Source of the DNA: an uncultured cyanobacterium
GTDB lineage: Bacteria > Cyanobacteriota > Cyanobacteriia > Cyanobacteriales > Nostocaceae
Direction of reading: 5' to 3'
NCBI GenBank assembly: GCA_963706595.1
Contig: OY970166.1
Location: 5,120,001-5,184,000 of the forward strand
DNA length: 64,000 nt
Of the stretch, positions 13,015 to 51,473 are shown piece by piece. The notes under the pieces were generated by a model, which searched no databases, was not told the origin of the DNA, and saw only the letters and a list, made by a program, of their open reading frames with translations. Every line of letters starts with the position of its first letter. The first letter of the stretch is position 1. A program made the translations under genes and the position numbers.

Positions 13015-13740
13015 ATGTCAAATCAGGATTATAAATATGACGTTGCGCTTTCTTTTGCAGGGGAAGACCGTAAATACGCAGACGAATTAGCACAAAGGCT
13101 AAAATCTCTTAATATTCGTGTCTTTTATGACGAATATGAACAAACCACACTTTGGGGAAAGAACCTATATACTCATCTTTCTGAGGTATACCAAAAGGAA
13201 GCTCGTTTCTGCGTCATGTTTCTTTCACAAAATTACGCTCAAAAGTTGTGGACAAACCGTGAACGTGAAGCGGCTCAAGCTCGTGCTTTTCAGGAAAATA
13301 AAGAATACATTCTTCCTATACGTCTGGACGATACAGAGATACCAGGAATCCTAATTACTACTGGATACCTAGAATGGTCTAATGCTGATTCAATTGCTAA
13401 GAGGGTGTTTGAAAAATTGAGCATTAAGGTGACATCTGATATTCCTGTTACTGGTGATGAGGCATCAGAAGTAGGAGAAGATTATACTGAATTACGGGAA
13501 TTATTGAATAATCAAGAATTTGCAAAAGCTGACTTTTTAACTGCAAAGTTGATGCTTCGGGTTGCAAGACAAGAACAAGAAGGCAGGTTAAGTCTAGAAA
13601 ATCTGCTCGAATTCCCAAAAAAAGATATAGTTACTATCAACAGACTTTGGGTATCAGGAAGCAAAGGAAGATTTGGATTTAGTGTGCAAAAACAGATTTG
13701 GATGGATTTGGGTTGGATAGAAAAGTGCCTCGAAAGGTGA
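13015..13740 (+). CDS. TIR domain + GUN4 domain protein (C-terminally disrupted)
   Basis: YDVALSFAGEDR...WTNRE...ILPIRLD TIR (catalytic Glu present), then DY..L..LL....F..AD..T...ML...I..LW...S.GRFGFSVQK.IW GUN4. Confidence 0.85.
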   Translation: MSNQDYKYDVALSFAGEDRKYADELAQRLKSLNIRVFYDEYEQTTLWGKNLYTHLSEVYQKEARFCVMFLSQNYAQKLWTNREREAAQARAFQENKEYILPIRLDDTEIPGILITTGYLEWSNADSIAKRVFEKLSIKVTSDIPVTGDEASEVGEDYTELRELLNNQEFAKADFLTAKLMLRVARQEQEGRLSLENLLEFPKKDIVTINRLWVSGSKGRFGFSVQKQIWMDLGWIEKCLER

Positions 13741-14346
13741 GCTTGGGCAAATTGAAAGGCATCTTATGATCGAGAGAACTGTGTAAGTTTTTTTGAATGG
13801 TGGAATGGGTAGAAGGGTAAAAAAGTGTTATTAATATATATTTGAGCAAAGGGCAGCCGCAGGACACCTGCCTCTAGGAATATATGTAAAGGTACACCGA
13901 AGTTAATAATGGATGTATAGAGATACATCAGAAATGGTGGGAACTGCGACTGTCTGCGACGAAATAAAAGTAAAGGAAGAGGAAGAAAGAGAATGGAAAG
14001 AGTTAATTAAGTAAGGAAAGAAAATTAGAGAGAAAAATATGAAAAAATTGTAAGGGTACTAGAATACTTTTATATATTTATTGTAAAATATTTAATACGT
14101 ATTTTAATAGTCATGGCATTGGGTGCATTTATAGGAAATTTTTTAAAAAATGGCATTTTAGGTATGGGATTTGCAGTAATTTTATTAATAGTGTTAGAGC
14201 TTTTTGGATTAGAAACGAACGTAAAAGTAAAGAGTAAATTATTTACGAAGATTAAACGAGTGAATGAAGGAAAGAGGAAAAGCGTTACGTAAAGCGTGAA
14301 GACTACATAAAATTCTTGGAATCTCTGTGTGAAGTGTAACACATAA
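13741..14346 (+). pseudogene. Degenerate distal part of the TIR-GUN4 gene
   Basis: Out-of-frame GUN4 GHLP motif at 13862-13873, two transmembrane-like segments, terminal V-K-C-N-T-stop at about 14329-14346; several intervening stops and frameshifts. Confidence 0.65.
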
Positions 14347-14381
14347 ATGTTCCAGCCTTTCCTAAACATTTGTTATCAAAA

Positions 14382-14830
14382 TCAGGAATTCCGATACCTG
14401 GCACTGTCATAACAATTAGCCACCACAAACTGTTCAGCCACTTCACGAACTGCCGAATCTTCAAATTCCCATTCCGCCCAAGGTAATCGCATCTGCCCTG
14501 GCGATGTCTTTTTACCCTTATGCTTTATAACTTTAGGCAACAATTTACTTCCCCAGTGATAGCTTTTCCCTGGTTTAGGTTGAGGCTTATACTTCTTACA
14601 AAAACCTCGATATTTAGCAGCGCATTCAGACAACGAATTACCCAAAGATAAAAAATCAGGATGCCATTGAGTTAGTCCATCATCTGTTAGCCTATCGTAA
14701 GTGCCAAATTTACTAAAATCATAGAAAAATCCCGCTTCCCTTCCAGTCGCTTTGGGGTTAGGGTGAATGTACTGCAGTGTAATCGTAATGCCCTATGATA
14801 AATTAACCAGTGCATGTGGTTTTCATATTT
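14382..14830 (-). mobile_element. 5'-truncated REP-associated tyrosine transposase (RAYT / Y1 HUH) remnant
   Basis: Frame upstream of the annotated ORF reads TLQYIHPNPKATG...GFFYDFS.FG.YD.L..DGLTQWHP.FL.LG; YIHxNP is the catalytic-Tyr motif of RAYT-type transposases; N-terminal HUH part is missing or decayed. Confidence 0.75.
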
Positions 14831-15430: not shown

Positions 15431-15446
15431 ACTCAGCATTTCCCCT

Positions 15447-15580
15447 CACGCTATGTGGAAAAATCAATGAGAAACCTAACCCCCCAACCCCCTTCCCTAC
15501 AAGGGAAGGGGGAGAATTCAAAGCCTCTCTCCTTGTAGGAGAGAGGTTTGGAGAGAGGTTTTCTAAATACCCTAAAAATA
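15447..15580. repeat. MITE-like element with two REP palindromes (inverted relative of 48272-48421)
   Basis: TCACGCTATGTGGAAAAAT...CCCCTTCCCTACAAGGGAAGGGGG...CCTCTCTCCTTGTAGGAGAGAGG; matches the reverse complement of the 48.3 kb element. Confidence 0.7.
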
Positions 15581-30768: not shown

Positions 30769-30941
30769 GAGGATGTTTTAAAAGTTTTGGGCGAATATAA
30801 TTCGCTACTACACAAGCAAAGTCCACCTGCGTGGACTAATGAAAAATTCAGGTTTTTAACCCGCGCAGGCGGGTTTGGTTTGTATAGCCGCGACTTCCAG
30901 TCGCTAGGGCTAGTAATAAATTAGACTTTACAAACATCCTC
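30769..30941. mobile_element. 173-bp MITE with TTA target duplication
   Basis: Terminal inverted repeats GAGGATGTTT..AAAGT / ACTTT..AAACATCCTC; TTA on both sides; internal multi-hairpin cargo similar to 51345-51473. Confidence 0.8.
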
Positions 30942-35823: not shown

Positions 35824-38800
35824 ATGTCTTACGAACCCCTCCACCATAAGTATCGCCCCAAGAGTTTTGCTGAACTGGTGGGACAAGAGGCGATCGCTAC
35901 TACCCTCACCAACGCGATCCGCACTGCTAAAATTGCCCCTGCCTATTTGTTTACAGGTCCCAGAGGTACGGGAAAGACTTCTAGCGCCCGGATTCTCGCT
36001 AAATCTTTAAATTGTCTCAACAGTGACCACCCCACTGCTGAACCCTGTGGAGTGTGTGATGTTTGTCAAGGCATCACTAAGGGCTATTCTCTCGATGTGA
36101 TAGAAATCGATGCTGCTAGTAACACTGGTGTTGATAATATCCGTGAGTTAATTGAAAAGGCACAATTTGCCCCTGTACAGTGTCGCTACAAGGTTTACGT
36201 GGTCGATGAATGTCTGACTGGAGATGCTCTGGTTTTAACTGATCAAGGACTCGTCAGAATTGATAACCCTAGCCTCAAGGGTAAGAAGGTGATGAGTTAC
36301 AACGACTCATCAGGCGAGTGGCAATTCAAGCAAGTTGTTAGGTGGTTAGATCAAGGAGAACGTCAAACGCTGGTTATCAAGACGAATAACCGAGAAATTA
36401 GATGTACGGGTAATCACTTAATCAGAACAGATCAGGGATGGATAGCAGCAAAAGACGTAAAAGAAGGAGCGAAGATACTATCTCCTGTGAATGTGGGTGC
36501 GGTACCCTCATTTATAAATTTGGTGTCGATGGACGCATCCGGCGATTCGTTAGCGGACACCAATTTAAAGGCAATACATCCGGGCAAAAATCTTACAATC
36601 TGGAATCTGTTCTTCAACAAGCTGAATTATTTAGACCTCTCTGTGCTTGCGGGTGTGGCGAAAAGCTTAATATCCCCACATTTTTACAAAAAAAAGGTAG
36701 GGGAATTGGCAGCATCCAGTCTCACTGGAAAAGACATCCATACAAAAAAGGACACGGAAATTGGGAACTCAGAACAGAAAAGTTCCTTGCCAATGCTGCG
36801 GTTTTACAACCAGATGCACTTGGACTTATCTATGGAACCTTACTGGGAGACGGCTCCATCTCTTACCCTAATAAATACAGCCGATTCCCCAGATTGTGCT
36901 GGACACACGCAGAAAAGCAGCAAGAATGGTTGGAATACAAAGCCAAGCGCCTTCAAGAATTACGTCCACAACTGCGAATTGCCATTAACAAAGGGTACGG
37001 AAACACCTCAGTTACCTGCAACACCGTTTGTCATCCCCAACTCAAAGATGTCTTTGAAATTGTCAAACCAAATGGGGATAAAAAACTTGTCTCTATGGAC
37101 TGGCTCAATCGAATTACCCCAGAGGGACTTGCTTGGTGGTTTTGCGATGATGGATCACTCAGCCTTACTCCACAAGGCAGTCCACAGATTCAATTGCATA
37201 CTGAAGGATTCTCTGTCACAGAAAATCAACTCATTGCTACTTGGCTTACCTCAATGGGATACCCAGCCGCAAGTAAGTCTTACACCAGAAGTAGTACAGG
37301 ACAGAAATACTACTACATCTGGATGGGGGCAAGAACCAGTAGACAATGGTTGGCAGACCTCAAACAATATTCAATCCCCTCAATGGATTACAAGTTTGGA
37401 GACAGTCGAATCTGTTCACCTCGCTGGAGTTGAACGAGTCTATGACATTGAAGTGGCAGATAATCACAACTTTGTCGCAAATGGGCTTTTGGTGCATAAT
37501 TGTCATATGCTCAGTACGGCGGCATTCAACGCGTTATTAAAAACATTAGAAGAACCACCGAAGCACGTAGTTTTTGTTTTAGCCACAACAGACCCGCAGC
37601 GAGTCTTACCAACGATTATTTCACGCTGCCAAAGATTTGATTTTAGACGGATTCAGTTGGAGGCGATGGTTAATCATTTAAGTGCGATCGCCTCTAAAGA
37701 AAGTATTAATATATCTCCGGATGCTGTCACCTTAATCGGTCAAATTGCTCAGGGAGGATTGCGAGACGCGGAAAGTCTACTGAGATCAATTAGCTTTGAC
37801 TGTGGGTGAAGTAACTCCTGACAAAGTTTGGGATTTGGTCGGTTCGGTGAGTGAACAAGACTTAATTGCATTATTGAAGGCGATCGCTCAAAATAACCCA
37901 GAAGGAGTTTTAGATTGTAGCCGGAAAATCCTCGATAGTGGCAGGGAACCGCTAATTATTCTGCAAAACCTCGCCGCTTTATACAGAGATTTGCTCATAG
38001 CACAAACAGCAGCTAATCGCCAGGATTTAGTGACTTGTACTCAGCAAACCTGGACAGCGTTGCTTGAATTGTCCCAAAAACTCGACATGAGTACAATTTT
38101 GCGGGGACAGCAACACCTACGCACAGCAGAAATGCAAATCAAAAATACCACCCAGCCCCGCTTATGGTTGGAAGTAACACTACTAGGATTATTGCCGAGT
38201 GCAAATGTTCAAACCCAAGCTGCAAGCACACCTCAGCGAGTAAATACGCCGGCTGTAGCTCCAAATTATTACCCAGTTGCTGCTGCACCACCTCAGCCCA
38301 CAAATCACAATCCCACAGTTAACCCAGTATCTGCACCTCAGCCTACAAATCACAATCCCACAGTTAACCCAGTATCTGCACCTCAGCCCACAAATCACAA
38401 TCCCACAGTTAACCCAGTATCTGTACCTCAGCCCACAAATCACAATCCGGTTCATCCCACCCCAACCACATCAGAACCTCAAACTCAAGCACCAGCACCT
38501 GTAAATAGTGAACCTGCATATCCACAGGAAGTTACTACACAATCAGAGTATGACTTAACTCAAGTTTGGCAGCAGGTCTGTATGAATATTCAGATGCCTT
38601 CTCGGCAAGCTTTACTGGGTCAAATGTGCCAGATTACAGAGTTTAACGGCAACGTGGTTCGTATTGCTGTCAAAGGCGCTTGGTTAGACACACTTAAATC
38701 TGATCTACCAGTGATTAAGGCTGCTTTCCAGCAGATTTTTCAGCGCGAAATCCAGGTTTATCTGGAAAAAGGAAATTCTTCTACTTCTAAATCAACAAGA

Positions 38801-39154
38801 ACAAATCCTCAACCACAAAATCCTACTCCCGTTCAGCAACCACCAGCACCCAACTACAATCAGCAAATTCAATCTTTCACACCGACGCTTCCAGCTACAC
38901 AAACACCAACACCAGTCGCAACACCAGCAAAAACCGAATCAACGACGAGTGCAGCTAGGATACAAACCTTGCCTTCGCGAACAACGCCAACGCCTCTGGC
39001 TGATTGGGAAACCGATGAAGTGGAGAATGCCGCCCAAAATCTAGCAAAGTTCTTCAATGGGCAAGTTATCCGCCTCACAAACGATGGAATAGATTCGCCT
39101 GAATCTGTGACTACATCTGAGGGCTTGGATGAACCAGAAATTGATGATGATTAA
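35824..39154 (+). CDS. dnaX: DNA polymerase III subunit gamma/tau with intein; +1 frameshift near 37782
   Basis: KYRP, GPRGTGKT, EIDAAS, DE|C-HML and SRCQ motifs; removing one base at about 37782 restores ESLL-DQLAL and joins the 37796-39154 ORF. Confidence 0.95.
36211..37500 (+). mobile_element. DnaX intein, 430 aa
   Basis: Starts CLTGD after the Walker B DE; block B CTGNH; blocks F/G VYDIEVADNHNFVANGLLVHN followed by Cys. Confidence 0.95.
36438..37433 (+). CDS. LAGLIDADG homing endonuclease encoded in the -1 frame inside the intein
   Basis: Two CxCGCG repeats, LIYGTLLGDGS and GLAWWFCDDGS motifs, LHTEGF and C-terminal MDYK. Confidence 0.9.
   Translation: MDSSKRRKRRSEDTISCECGCGTLIYKFGVDGRIRRFVSGHQFKGNTSGQKSYNLESVLQQAELFRPLCACGCGEKLNIPTFLQKKGRGIGSIQSHWKRHPYKKGHGNWELRTEKFLANAAVLQPDALGLIYGTLLGDGSISYPNKYSRFPRLCWTHAEKQQEWLEYKAKRLQELRPQLRIAINKGYGNTSVTCNTVCHPQLKDVFEIVKPNGDKKLVSMDWLNRITPEGLAWWFCDDGSLSLTPQGSPQIQLHTEGFSVTENQLIATWLTSMGYPAASKSYTRSSTGQKYYYIWMGARTSRQWLADLKQYSIPSMDYKFGDSRICSPRWS
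38291..38448 (+). repeat. 45-nt coding tandem repeat (PQPTNHNPTVNPVSA) x3.5 in the DnaX linker
   Basis: Units start at 38291, 38336, 38381 and 38426 (partial). Confidence 0.95.
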
Positions 39155-48271: not shown

Positions 48272-48421
48272 GACTTTTCACGGTATCGGGAAAACCCCTC
48301 TCCAAACCTCTCCCCTACAAGGAGAGAGGCTTTAATTTTTCCCCCTTCCCTCGCAGGGAAGGGGGTTAGGGGGTTAGGGGGTTAGGTTTCACGTTAATTT
48401 TTCCACATAACGTGAAAAGTC
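48272..48421. mobile_element. 150-bp MITE with REP palindromes
   Basis: Terminal inverted repeats GACTTTTCACG / CGTGAAAAGTC; internal CCCCCTTCCCTCGCAGGGAAGGGGG; truncates the adjacent transposase remnant. Confidence 0.8.
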
Positions 48422-48699
48422 AGGCTAGATATCGGGGGTTTTGTCGCAAGTACAAGCCAAAGCCAAAATCAGAAAAGCGTAACCACTGGGGAAGCAAGCC
48501 GTTAGCGGGAATGAAGTTTAAAGGAAAGCTGAATAAAAAGAAAACATCACCAGGACAAATGAATTTAACTTGGAACAACTGGGAATCAACAGACCCAGAA
48601 ATTCAGGAAGTAGCTGATAAATTTGTCATGGCGAATTGCTATCAACCACCAGGGGGGAGTGCCAGGGAACGAAAACCGGGAAACCTTGAAACTTCGTAG
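48422..48699 (+). mobile_element. C-terminal remnant of a RAYT-like transposase, paralogous to 14382-14830
   Basis: YRGFC.KYKP.PK....HWGSK.L......KKTSPGQM.L.W..WE..D....EVA..FV.ANCY is shared with the 14.4 kb copy. Confidence 0.75.
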
Positions 48700-48740
48700 A
48701 AAAGTCGGCAATAAAAAATGTTTATGATTGACTGAAAGCT

Positions 48741-51248
48741 TTATAGGTTACAGTTTACAACTCTCTGCGCGAGAGAAGAGTAATTTTCACGCATACAATA
48801 ACTAAGGCTGACCCCATTTATGACTTTTACGTTCACCGCGTTCGTCCATATAATCCCTTGTTTGTATTTACGCTCCTGAACACTCAAACCAAAGCGACCA
48901 TCACTATATTGCACCCAAAGTTGGTCAATGGTGCGGAGGTCAGAACAGGGAAATTTTTCTATATCTTCACTAGATAAGTAACCTTGACTTTCTCGGTTAG
49001 CCACCTTGAGCATCATTTTAGCTGTTTCCTCATCAGCTTCCTGCCAATTTCCAGCTATCAAGTGTTCTAAAAGTTGTCTGTATTGTGGCGGCCATTGGTC
49101 TTTAACAACCCTTATTCCTTCTCCATCAGTGCGGTTTTCCTGAGTCCAACAAGTAAGATAATTCTCATCTCTTGCTGGATACTGTTTTGCTTCTGCTTCC
49201 GTGGGTAATCTATAACGAATTAGGTTGTTGTTAAAATTAGAATTAAAACTCAACCAAGCACAAAAACGATTAGCAGCTTGAAAAGTAATGCCAGTAACAG
49301 GTTGAGTACGAGCAATATATTTTAAGTTCAAGTCCCATAAGTCAAATAAGTGATATTCTGCAATTGTAATGTATCCCTGATCAATTTTTTGCGTTTCATT
49401 AATTCTCAATAAATTATTCAACCTCCTTGATAGTTTTACCTGTGCTGCTATTATAGCAATTTCTAGGTCAGGGGATTCCAAACCAGCTTCGAGAATATTT
49501 TCAAGTTCTCGCCGTGTTTGTGGTTCTACTTCCTTACTTTCTTTCCAACAATCATAAGCTAAAGTTAAGGAAGCAACCGTCTGATTTTGTAACGCTGCTT
49601 TAATCAATTTTGTGGCATCACTTTGAGCAGCATAAAGGCGAATTGTTTCTGCCCACCAAGGATTATCCAAATTATCAATTAATATTTGGTTATCAATTAA
49701 TATTTGTTTTTGCTGCAACTCTTTCACCTCAGCCGCAGCTAAATATTCCTGAAAACTCAAATGAGCAAATTCAAATTTGCCTTGCTCTTTTTCCACTATT
49801 AAACCACTCACATCTTTAACTTGTTCTAAAAATTCTCCTGGTGTTAGTGTATTATTAACTATTGTTTGTAGCTTCCTAGCAATTAAACTCTCAACTTCTG
49901 CTGGTGCAAAAGTGCGAGTTTTCTTTTGCATCAAATCCAGCGCTAAAACTTGTAATACTGATTTATTTTGGTCAGATGTAAGAGGTGCTGTGATTTCCTT
50001 AGCAGCTTGTCGAGTTCCTAAAAGTAAATCACAAATTTTTTGATAAAGTTCCACCCTTTCTCCTGGTAATGCACTACCGTTATAATGAACAGTAGCAATC
50101 ATTGTCACCAATAGCGGATTGGTTGCCATATCAGCAATAGCACGATTATTAATAATCCGATCAATTAAATCTGCGGCATTTTTCTCAGATTTTGCTTTTA
50201 CAGCTTGATTATTTTTCCCAGCGCGACTTCTAATTTCTGTTTGCAGATACCAACTATTAATAAATTGCTTCATCTGCTCTAAAGTGAAAGGTAGAACTTT
50301 TAAAATAACTCCTACTTGATCCACAGGCGCACTACTATAACCATAAGGACGAGAAGTAATAATAAAAGCTGTTTGGCGATAAATAGCCATTTGCTGATTT
50401 ACCCATGCACTTACCTGCAAACGTTTTTCACTATCAGCAACTTCATCCAATCCATCCAACATGACTAAACATTTACCATTCTTTAACTGTTCATTAAACC
50501 AGTCTGTTTGGGGGTTTAGTTCAGCAAAAGCAGGTTGGTTTTTTAAGTGATTAGTAATTAATTCTGGTAAGTTAGGAGGTTGTTGGCTGGTAATTTCTTC
50601 ACGGATATCGCGCAGGTACAATAACACTGGTAAAAATTGCGTTGCTTTATATTTGCTATAACCATTTTTGGCATAGGTCAAAGTTAAATGCTTGAGCAAA
50701 GTTGTTTTACCATATCCAGGGGGAGCGATAACAGCCATGCGGCGAAAACTATTTTGTTGAGAAATAGCAGCTAAAAAATCCCAAATTTCTTGATTTTCAG
50801 AATGTTGACTGGTGTGTTGAGTCGTAACCATTGCACCAGAAATATTTTCTAAATTACCTGTCTCAACTTTTAATGGTACAAATACATCCTCTAAATCTAA
50901 TACAGGTAAGCCAATTCTGAAACCCTCAGTTTCAAAGTCACAATAAAAATCGACTAATGCTTTTTTATACTTACTCTCAAATCCTGAAAGTTTTTTAATA
51001 ACTTTTTGTGGTAAATCGTCTGCTTGTTTAGCAGTCCATTCTCCAGCTTGTTTACCTTTTTCTTCTGCTTTGGTTTCTACGGCTTTCATAAATTCGCCGC
51101 TAAACTTCACCCAAATAGAGGAACTAGCAGTGAGAAAAGTAGAAATTACAGCCTGTGTCCATTGTTGGTTAAGGAGAAAATGACCTGTTACACCAACTCC
51201 AGCACCAGTAGGAAACCATTGGAATAATGCCTGTGTAATCTTTTGCAT
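48741..51248 (-). CDS. NACHT NTPase with partial FGE/C-type-lectin-like segment and C-terminal GUN4 domain
   Basis: APPGYGKT, MLDGLDE, ITSRP, NPLL and FAHLSFQEYLAA; QPVTGITF..A..FC.WL...YRLPTEAE; W..AD.ET..MML...FPC.DL.TIDQLW..YS.GRFG.SVQ; SSLAQRVVNCNL. Confidence 0.9.
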   Translation of the reverse strand: MQKITQALFQWFPTGAGVGVTGHFLLNQQWTQAVISTFLTASSSIWVKFSGEFMKAVETKAEEKGKQAGEWTAKQADDLPQKVIKKLSGFESKYKKALVDFYCDFETEGFRIGLPVLDLEDVFVPLKVETGNLENISGAMVTTQHTSQHSENQEIWDFLAAISQQNSFRRMAVIAPPGYGKTTLLKHLTLTYAKNGYSKYKATQFLPVLLYLRDIREEITSQQPPNLPELITNHLKNQPAFAELNPQTDWFNEQLKNGKCLVMLDGLDEVADSEKRLQVSAWVNQQMAIYRQTAFIITSRPYGYSSAPVDQVGVILKVLPFTLEQMKQFINSWYLQTEIRSRAGKNNQAVKAKSEKNAADLIDRIINNRAIADMATNPLLVTMIATVHYNGSALPGERVELYQKICDLLLGTRQAAKEITAPLTSDQNKSVLQVLALDLMQKKTRTFAPAEVESLIARKLQTIVNNTLTPGEFLEQVKDVSGLIVEKEQGKFEFAHLSFQEYLAAAEVKELQQKQILIDNQILIDNLDNPWWAETIRLYAAQSDATKLIKAALQNQTVASLTLAYDCWKESKEVEPQTRRELENILEAGLESPDLEIAIIAAQVKLSRRLNNLLRINETQKIDQGYITIAEYHLFDLWDLNLKYIARTQPVTGITFQAANRFCAWLSFNSNFNNNLIRYRLPTEAEAKQYPARDENYLTCWTQENRTDGEGIRVVKDQWPPQYRQLLEHLIAGNWQEADEETAKMMLKVANRESQGYLSSEDIEKFPCSDLRTIDQLWVQYSDGRFGLSVQERKYKQGIIWTNAVNVKVINGVSLSYCMRENYSSLAQRVVNCNL

Positions 51249-51328: not shown

Positions 51329-51473
51329 CTGACATCTTGCACTAAGCCCTGGCGATTAGAAATCGCGGCTATACAAACAAAGTCCGCCTACGCGGACTCA
51401 CAGAAAAACAAGGGTTTTTAACCCACGTAGGTGGGTTTCGCCTGTGTAGCCGTGACTTCCAGTCGCCTGGTGC
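51329..51473. repeat. Multi-hairpin dispersed repeat (related to the cargo of the 30.8 kb MITE)
   Basis: GCGATTAGAAATCGC, AGTCCGCCTACGCGGACT, AACCCACGTAGGTGGGTT and GACTTCCAGTC hairpins. Confidence 0.75.

Follow-up and report, generated by a model that had tools for sequence, protein, structure and literature searches.

The stretch studied here, called the window throughout, comprises 64,000 nucleotides (nt) of an uncultured cyanobacterium of the Nostocaceae (assembly GCA_963706595.1, contig OY970166.1, positions 5,120,001 to 5,184,000), and our subject within it is locus B, a gene for an NLR-like STAND NTPase whose GUN4-encoding 3' end faces the remnant of a convergent RAYT (a TnpA-REP-like Y1 HUH protein). 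The gene (48741..51248, minus strand, assigned from its open reading frame (ORF) and Pfam matches) encodes 835 amino acids (aa) in the order NACHT, compact C-type lectin (mini-CLec) and GUN4, and its frame stays open to SSLAQRVVNCNL, as originally described. Pfam matched each of the three domains named by the original prediction: a NACHT core (aa 170-333; 50250..50741, minus strand; PF05729, E 3e-9, above cut-off) in which Walker A and B motifs are visible on inspection; an FGE-sulfatase domain, marginally; and a proximal GUN4 core (aa 722-797; 48858..49085, minus strand; PF05419, E 1e-25, with Foldseek matches to GUN4 structures). The GUN4 match spans profile positions 7-84 of 141 only: the proximal two thirds of the fold are matched, and the distal third is replaced and modelled with low confidence. 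The gene had been called intact, which holds for its reading frame but not for distal GUN4.

At the distal end of the GUN4 region, 90 nt (48780..48869, minus strand, delimited with relatives' contigs and an orthologue alignment) replace the distal GUN4 core, the GHLP anchor and the normal variable tip. About 30 residues are exchanged and the (V/I/E)W and GHLP elements are absent; comparison with orthologues and homologues bears out the earlier observation that the usual F.DRVGW and GHLP elements are missing. The two orthologues from the same genus, L002 (84% identical) and L003 (80%), do not share this segment, each having a normal distal GUN4 core, a GHLP-like motif and its own tip. Of 16 database homologues, 13 extend to the C-terminus, and these likewise keep a GHLP-like motif, an individual tip and one of three constant tails (among the 16, P0001 and P0013 stop earlier, P0008 repeats L003 and P0012 repeats L002). 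In contigs from relatives' sequencing runs, 181 or 158 different letters stand in place of 48778-48879, and one loose contig end at this position reads as normal sequence. Because orthologues, homologues and relatives' contigs carry normal distal GUN4, we take the 90-nt segment to be a derived allele.

From SVQ to the palindrome that follows, locus B measures 99 nt, the shortest of 109 ends (next 142, median 223), and it alone among the listed non-anchor ends reads through with neither a VGW-type nor a GHLP-type motif. A frame open through the segment arises by chance in 7.8% of shuffles. In AlphaFold2 (AF2) models, confidence (pLDDT) over the segment is 47-68 for locus B, falling below 50 at aa 805-814, compared with 74-89 for L002, and TM scores to GUN4 (target) are 0.51-0.57 compared with 0.73-0.75. 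The alpha6/alpha7 loop residues Pro208, Leu210, Arg214 and Arg217 are absent in locus B; in orthologues a variable tip takes their place. The segment had been described as about 32 unrelated residues, and this stands for most of its length, as gapped alignment to orthologues is not significant (p 0.2-0.44); it does not stand for the first ~16 nt, which are similar to the orthologue. When a short seed sets the register, 31 of 75 positions match L002 where 20.4 are expected (p 0.005, post hoc). No in-register likeness to L003 was found, nor any donor for the segment within the organism's own genome. A plainly hypermutated orthologue copy was rejected as its origin, gapped alignment being non-significant and the in-register likeness only suggestive. 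The composition, 38% A, is unlike that of typical tips.

The end of locus B is one instance of a module that runs from a GUN4 core through 24-200 nt of template-less, G/T-rich DNA at the porphyrin-binding loop (the tip), a hairpin with stops in three frames and a 106-nt spacer to a convergent RAYT. At locus B the constant end (48741..48779, minus strand; sequence and family profile) consists of a CT-rich foot, a short palindrome and then TAA in three frames at 7-nt spacing. It is followed by a fixed-length non-coding spacer (48660..48740, no strand assigned; family profile) with a GATACCTGGCA-type motif, here degenerate, that lies 106 nt on from the start of the palindrome; the distance is exact in 73 of 138 sites. 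The spacer is non-coding in all six frames, five of which are interrupted by stops in most sequences and the sixth in 26 of 73, and it has no codon periodicity; an antisense protein-coding frame was therefore rejected. A structured RNA or DNA was rejected as well: consensus folding gave no structure, and Rfam returned one sub-threshold 24-nt match outside the module. Neither a GTAG foot nor covariation was found in the conserved palindrome and spacer, to which the search was confined (repetitive extragenic palindromes (REPs) upstream of full RAYTs lay outside it). Ends are read through in 95 of 109 cases, the three tails being used 43, 29 and 23 times.

The GUN4 domains that carry the module belong to NACHT, kinase, TIR and other proteins, and six GUN4 genes of the genome end in the module element, five of them with a RAYT fragment. 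Linkage to RAYT was assessed at loci chosen by RAYT sequence alone, as the best 80 of 383 matches to the 258-aa RAYT of L011: a convergent GUN4 gene is present at 66 of the 80, and 4 of the 14 without one had <500 nt downstream. All 80 full RAYTs keep an HxH motif and YIHxNP, so that the HUH and catalytic Tyr motifs are present, and 74 have GQxxLxW in their tails, which may resemble sliding-clamp-binding motifs. The full partner RAYT from L011 scores 70.5 against the NCBIfam RAYT model, whose cut-off is 80. No description of a GUN4-RAYT module turned up in the literature searched, which took in neither subscription papers nor bioRxiv supplements. At three further loci (L152, L174, L186) G/T-rich DNA precedes the constant end and the 700 nt upstream contain no GUN4 motif; these ends may mark another or a decayed target.

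Tips were compared across relatives in 138 module ends from genomes and metagenomes, 103 of which have a GHLP-type anchor and yield 101 unique tips. These are 24-200 nt long and 71% G+T (G 0.38, T 0.33, A 0.17, C 0.12); GC skew of the genome is weak. In-frame stops are selected against, occurring in 12 tips where shuffles predict 59.5. Between near-identical genes the whole tip is replaced: 20 pairs that are at least 93% identical over 150 nt upstream have tips only 29-69% alike, with at most three leading nt in common in 19 of them, and the borders of these unrelated tips are sharp. At their 3' border, on the CT run of the palindrome foot, about 90% or more of the 101 tips have TCT. Pro208 is the last residue before the tip, which takes the place of the stretch containing Arg214 and Arg217 (residues of PMC1084334 mapped onto the genome's own GUN4); the accessible part of that paper ties both arginines to porphyrin binding.

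For four of six segments in the genome, that of locus B included, no tip source was found there; no template-like copy of any tip was found in the assembled genome, nor is length fixed (24-200 nt). Fourteen repeats inside tips, six of them starting upstream of the anchor end, contain three mismatches in all, and such near-perfect repeats favour accurate copying combined with fill-in that uses no template over mutagenesis aimed at particular bases. Wobble or deamination changes (A>G, C>T) were rejected because of these repeats and because upstream changes lack such a spectrum; snap-back copying of the anchor was rejected because inverted matches are not enriched (4 of 101 tips). The metagenome loci (64) include 14 close pairs whose tips are the same, and in all of these the RAYT is absent or the contig cut off; of 14 pairs that have a long RAYT piece, not one shares its tip. 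Taken together, the linkage at 66 of 80 loci and the different tips of near-identical genes uphold the view of the GUN4 end as a variable segment and tie it to RAYT; ligand binding by it is predicted.

At locus B itself only a C-terminal remnant of the RAYT is left (48424..48699, plus strand, from its match to the full-length relative L011). It corresponds to residues ~171-243 of the 258-aa relative and lacks the HUH motif and the catalytic Tyr. Where relatives have ~516 nt of continuing RAYT, locus B has a ~150-bp miniature inverted-repeat transposable element (MITE; 48273..48423, no strand assigned, placed with a relative's contig) of a family with 12 full-length copies in the genome; to the eye, a loose contig end at the MITE position carries on the RAYT. 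On visual inspection, 9 of the 11 other full copies have a flank duplication that is absent here. Because 516 nt are replaced and this duplication is absent, a MITE-linked loss of the 5' part is supported and a clean insertion into an already truncated RAYT is rejected; the RAYT has lost its 5' part at the MITE, as had been noted. A second, partial copy of the MITE family lies at window positions 15446-15578, inverted relative to 48273-48423. In the organism's own genome no intact cognate RAYT was found, only fragments, and its sole other RAYT-like protein is 32% identical over the core. Locus B is therefore likely frozen, and the activity in trans once envisaged is unlikely in this genome.

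Locus B is, judged from gene neighbourhoods, accessory: the neighbouring oxidoreductase gene was followed in the best 30 of 121 genomes, the organism's own among them, and at none of its 29 other loci does GUN4 or RAYT occur within 1.5 kb. Over aa 111-600, lineage-specific codons number 18 non-synonymous and 19 synonymous, similar to orthologues, and amino-acid changes are not in excess in the NACHT region; for proximal GUN4 the corresponding counts are 6 non-synonymous and 1 synonymous. The protein matches EruA and DS8 partially and far under cut-off, and its PADLOC match is confined to the GUN4 part. The protein is predicted to be an NLR-like switch on which the GUN4 tip forms a diversified ligand-binding surface instead of the porphyrin loop, a surface that the locus B allele has probably destroyed. 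Compared with relatives, the gene also has a shortened and diverged mini-CLec loop (window 49318-49378) and an 18-nt tandem duplication near window position 49671.

Ahead of GUN4, aa 601-718 (49095..49448, minus strand; PF03781 and AF2 model) form a compact FGE-type C-type lectin domain that is predicted to be complete. The FGE-sulfatase profile match that had been anticipated lies just over the cut-off (aa 647-707, E 4.4e-5, 23.7 bits against 23.3) and covers profile positions 89-138 of 255 only, and profile-profile alignment recognised only the N-terminal part of a full CLec. In the AF2 model of aa 597-835 (mean pLDDT 86.5), however, VIA aligned the mini-CLec from first through last strand with CarF, PvdO, ToxD and TvpA (for TvpA 2y3c, residues 59-329: Z 9.3, root-mean-square deviation 3.3, 113 residues); its final strand is GIRVVK and the large FGE insert is absent. 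Foldseek returned only weak FGE matches for the model, the whole-fold alignment coming from VIA. The FGE-like segment occurs in GUN4-ended and CLec-ended homologues alike, and modelling predicts it to be a closed, compact CLec common to the family rather than the truncated stump for which it had been taken. Four NACHT homologues (L005, L006, L008, L018) end in a full CLec of the type targeted by diversity-generating retroelements (DGRs), and three of them retain the first half of GUN4 ahead of it. In a NACHT-region tree (23 sequences, midpoint root; L012 excluded as too short), the CLec-ended forms are divided between two supported clades, and a GUN4-ended member is present in both. Because half-GUN4 remnants precede the terminal CLec, sequence comparison suggests that CLec replaced distal GUN4 in these relatives, the direction opposite to that first proposed. 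Two kinds of variable module, a GUN4 end and a CLec end, are thus exchanged on one NACHT scaffold. The DGR-target-type CLec/FGE fold is present in locus B, but it is internal and not the variable part.

On balance, we lean towards reading locus B as an extreme, damaged allele of the GUN4-tip module, with its variable segment likely rewritten by the facing RAYT nuclease, a change that reaches ~22 codons into the GUN4 core, and with its RAYT broken. We infer that RAYT would be the catalyst. Positioned by the palindrome and the fixed 106-nt spacer, it would nick the coding strand between C and T at the palindrome foot and stay bound to the constant side; the free 3' end would be trimmed back and refilled, mostly with untemplated G/T-rich DNA and occasionally with faithful re-copies of upstream sequence, and the HUH enzyme would rejoin the refilled end. 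In the accessible part of PMC8266576, TnpA-REP enzymes are described as cutting between C and T beside stem-loops and rejoining 3'-OH ends. Any tip length would be tolerated because a usable tail ends all three frames. Selection on the protein likely places the upstream border at GHLP, since the wobble base of the proline already varies and the matching Synechocystis GUN4 Pro208 is needed for folding; locus B may then be a rare overshoot that retained the frame. We advance a wider proposal tentatively, with more doubt than conviction: that a domesticated HUH nuclease drives junctional diversification, free of reverse transcriptase (RT) and template and akin to that of CDR3, of the ligand loop in NLR, kinase and TIR sensors of cyanobacteria, the DNA itself providing a three-frame exit, interchangeably with DGR-CLec modules on the same NACHT scaffold, and that the overshoot at locus B reveals a limit set by protein selection, not by a second DNA site.

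Several points weigh against rewriting by the RAYT. Tips were compared between assembled contigs rather than among reads of one clone; the pairs come mostly from one clade and are not independent, and identical pairs may represent one strain sampled twice. The RAYT query was itself taken from a GUN4-linked locus, with the best 80 of 383 matches considered. Tips differ also in 13 pairs in which neither member has a RAYT, no piece of a RAYT lies near 36 of the 64 metagenome ends, 2 of the 9 RAYTs counted as 'long' have an internal deletion, and no compensatory changes were seen in the palindrome. Two own-genome tips have 17-23-nt matches elsewhere, at or over the shuffle maximum, so some capture of genomic DNA is possible. 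At locus B, an A content of 38%, when only 1 of 101 tips reaches 36%, means that the segment may not come from the usual fill-in, and the in-register likeness to L002 points to substitution of old sequence. The A-rich composition resembles normal GUN4 coding DNA and would suit ordinary decay, in which the module is real and the segment arose by deletion and drift or by illegitimate recombination in an unselected GUN4 end, unrelated to rewriting. The six non-synonymous changes to one synonymous in proximal GUN4, the second shortened patch in the mini-CLec loop and the 18-nt duplication fit decay too. We nevertheless consider it unlikely, though not far-fetched: in all relatives compared, the right-hand limit of the segment coincides exactly with the constant end of the module (48777-48779); drift would not account for an identity of at most 41% across 75 nt when the gene body is about 90% identical; and the frame is still open, as in 7.8% of shuffles.

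Nor need the RAYT be the author of the variation, as it might only spread or maintain the cassette while the tip varies through host repair, slippage or recombination at the G-rich tract, under diversifying selection. Direct local repeats beyond all shuffles in 18-19 of 101 tips and the differing tips of RAYT-less copies speak for this, as does the withdrawal of the causal claim by the authors of the procA study (bioRxiv 10.1101/2020.03.09.984088). Most tips, however, have neither a repeat nor a local template, the 3' border at the CT foot is sharp, and the same tips occur only where a long RAYT is absent, and we judge such a bystander role quite unlikely. Very improbable is the scheme of the original prediction, in which GUN4 replaced the distal part of a CLec sensor to give an intact, swapped sensor served by RAYT in trans. 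The partial coverage in Pfam and profile-profile alignments is what one would expect of it, and an ancient swap of this sort is conceivable, but the model covers a whole CLec fold, the segment is family-wide, CLec-ended forms retain half of GUN4 and the genome has yielded no intact cognate RAYT. DGRs substitute adenines at fixed length. That the tip is a DGR target mutated from a remote template can be given hardly any credence: an RT does adjoin an FGE gene in the genome, which holds ten near-full FGE domains, but the absence of a template-like tip copy from the assembled genome (an unassembled plasmid being outside the search) largely refutes the idea, and tip lengths of 24-200 nt occur in all frames.

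Other copies of the module occur in the window and elsewhere in the genome. Locus A (window 13015-14792), a TIR-GUN4 gene, has the same module, with the frame broken after the GUN4 core, a variable zone grown to about 600 C-poor nt, the palindrome lost and a RAYT without its HUH part. Four further copies, at G000:C1 1212233, 1363895, 1928711 and 2327479, end TIR, KAP-like NTPase and kinase genes and use all three tails; an insertion sequence interrupts one of their RAYT remnants. The RT-FGE pair at G000:C1 4623989-4626104, in the genome with ten near-full FGE domains, is likely a DGR. A high-copy, REP-like palindromic repeat with about 90 genome matches occurs upstream of the locus B gene (window 51345-51466) and at 30841-30911, and a 198-aa RAYT-like protein (G000:C1 329258-329683) may be its partner. 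Window 35824-39154 holds dnaX with an intein, continued in a second overlapping ORF from 37796.

Few bacterial mechanisms that diversify a defined protein segment are known. That TnpA-REP enzymes diversify host genes is an unproven idea, for which the module, having an exact border and a fixed cis element, supplies a second case open to testing; the module also bears on the long-open question of how RAYTs benefit their hosts; if true, GUN4 fusions would be recast from pigment sensors to variable receptors. Locus B, a broken copy, is informative on the limits of rewriting and is not suited as an experimental model. The nearest published case is that of the prochlorosin precursor gene procA facing tnpA-REP in marine picocyanobacteria (Laurenceau et al., bioRxiv 10.1101/2020.03.09.984088). 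Shared with it are the tail-to-tail geometry, the conserved intergenic sequence and distance, the indel-rich hypervariable C-terminal segment, the many C-terminal RAYT remnants and a TnpA-REP with a long C-terminal tail. Here, by contrast, the target is a GUN4 domain (of NACHT, kinase, TIR and other proteins) rather than a lanthipeptide precursor, the constant end lies inside the coding region with a three-frame exit, and the tips are G/T-rich. That study says that the procA-linked TnpA-REP descends from Trichodesmium-type proteins, that cyanobacterial relatives are not beside lanthipeptide genes and that strong evidence on causality was not found; the word GUN4 is absent from its main text.

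As to the enzyme, the accessible parts of two papers fit the family: a Y1 HUH protein with NHVH and YIHxNP resembles subclass 2.1, with a long tail and no REP (PMC6006769), and cleavage between C and T beside a stem-loop matches the tip border (PMC8266576). Unlike RAYTs with dispersed REPs, the module has one fixed site in a protein-coding end and no GTAG foot, and the NCBIfam score of 70.5 is under the cut-off of 80. With cyanobacterial DGRs and their CLec targets, too, multidomain proteins of the kinase, TIR and NACHT types have a variable ligand-binding tip at the C-terminus, according to the accessible part of PMC7517822, whereas the present module has no RT or template, varies in length and is not adenine-specific. 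The NACHT-GUN4 architecture is described as common in cyanobacteria, with GUN4 read as a tetrapyrrole sensor (Kibby et al. and Kaur et al.; bioRxiv 10.1101/2022.07.19.500537; PMC7159879); in contrast to these accounts, which in their accessible parts do not mention a RAYT link, the stretch with the porphyrin-binding arginines is here the variable tip. NACHT-GUN4 proteins are thus known, and the GUN4-RAYT variable-tip module is a further instance of a proposed, unproven kind.

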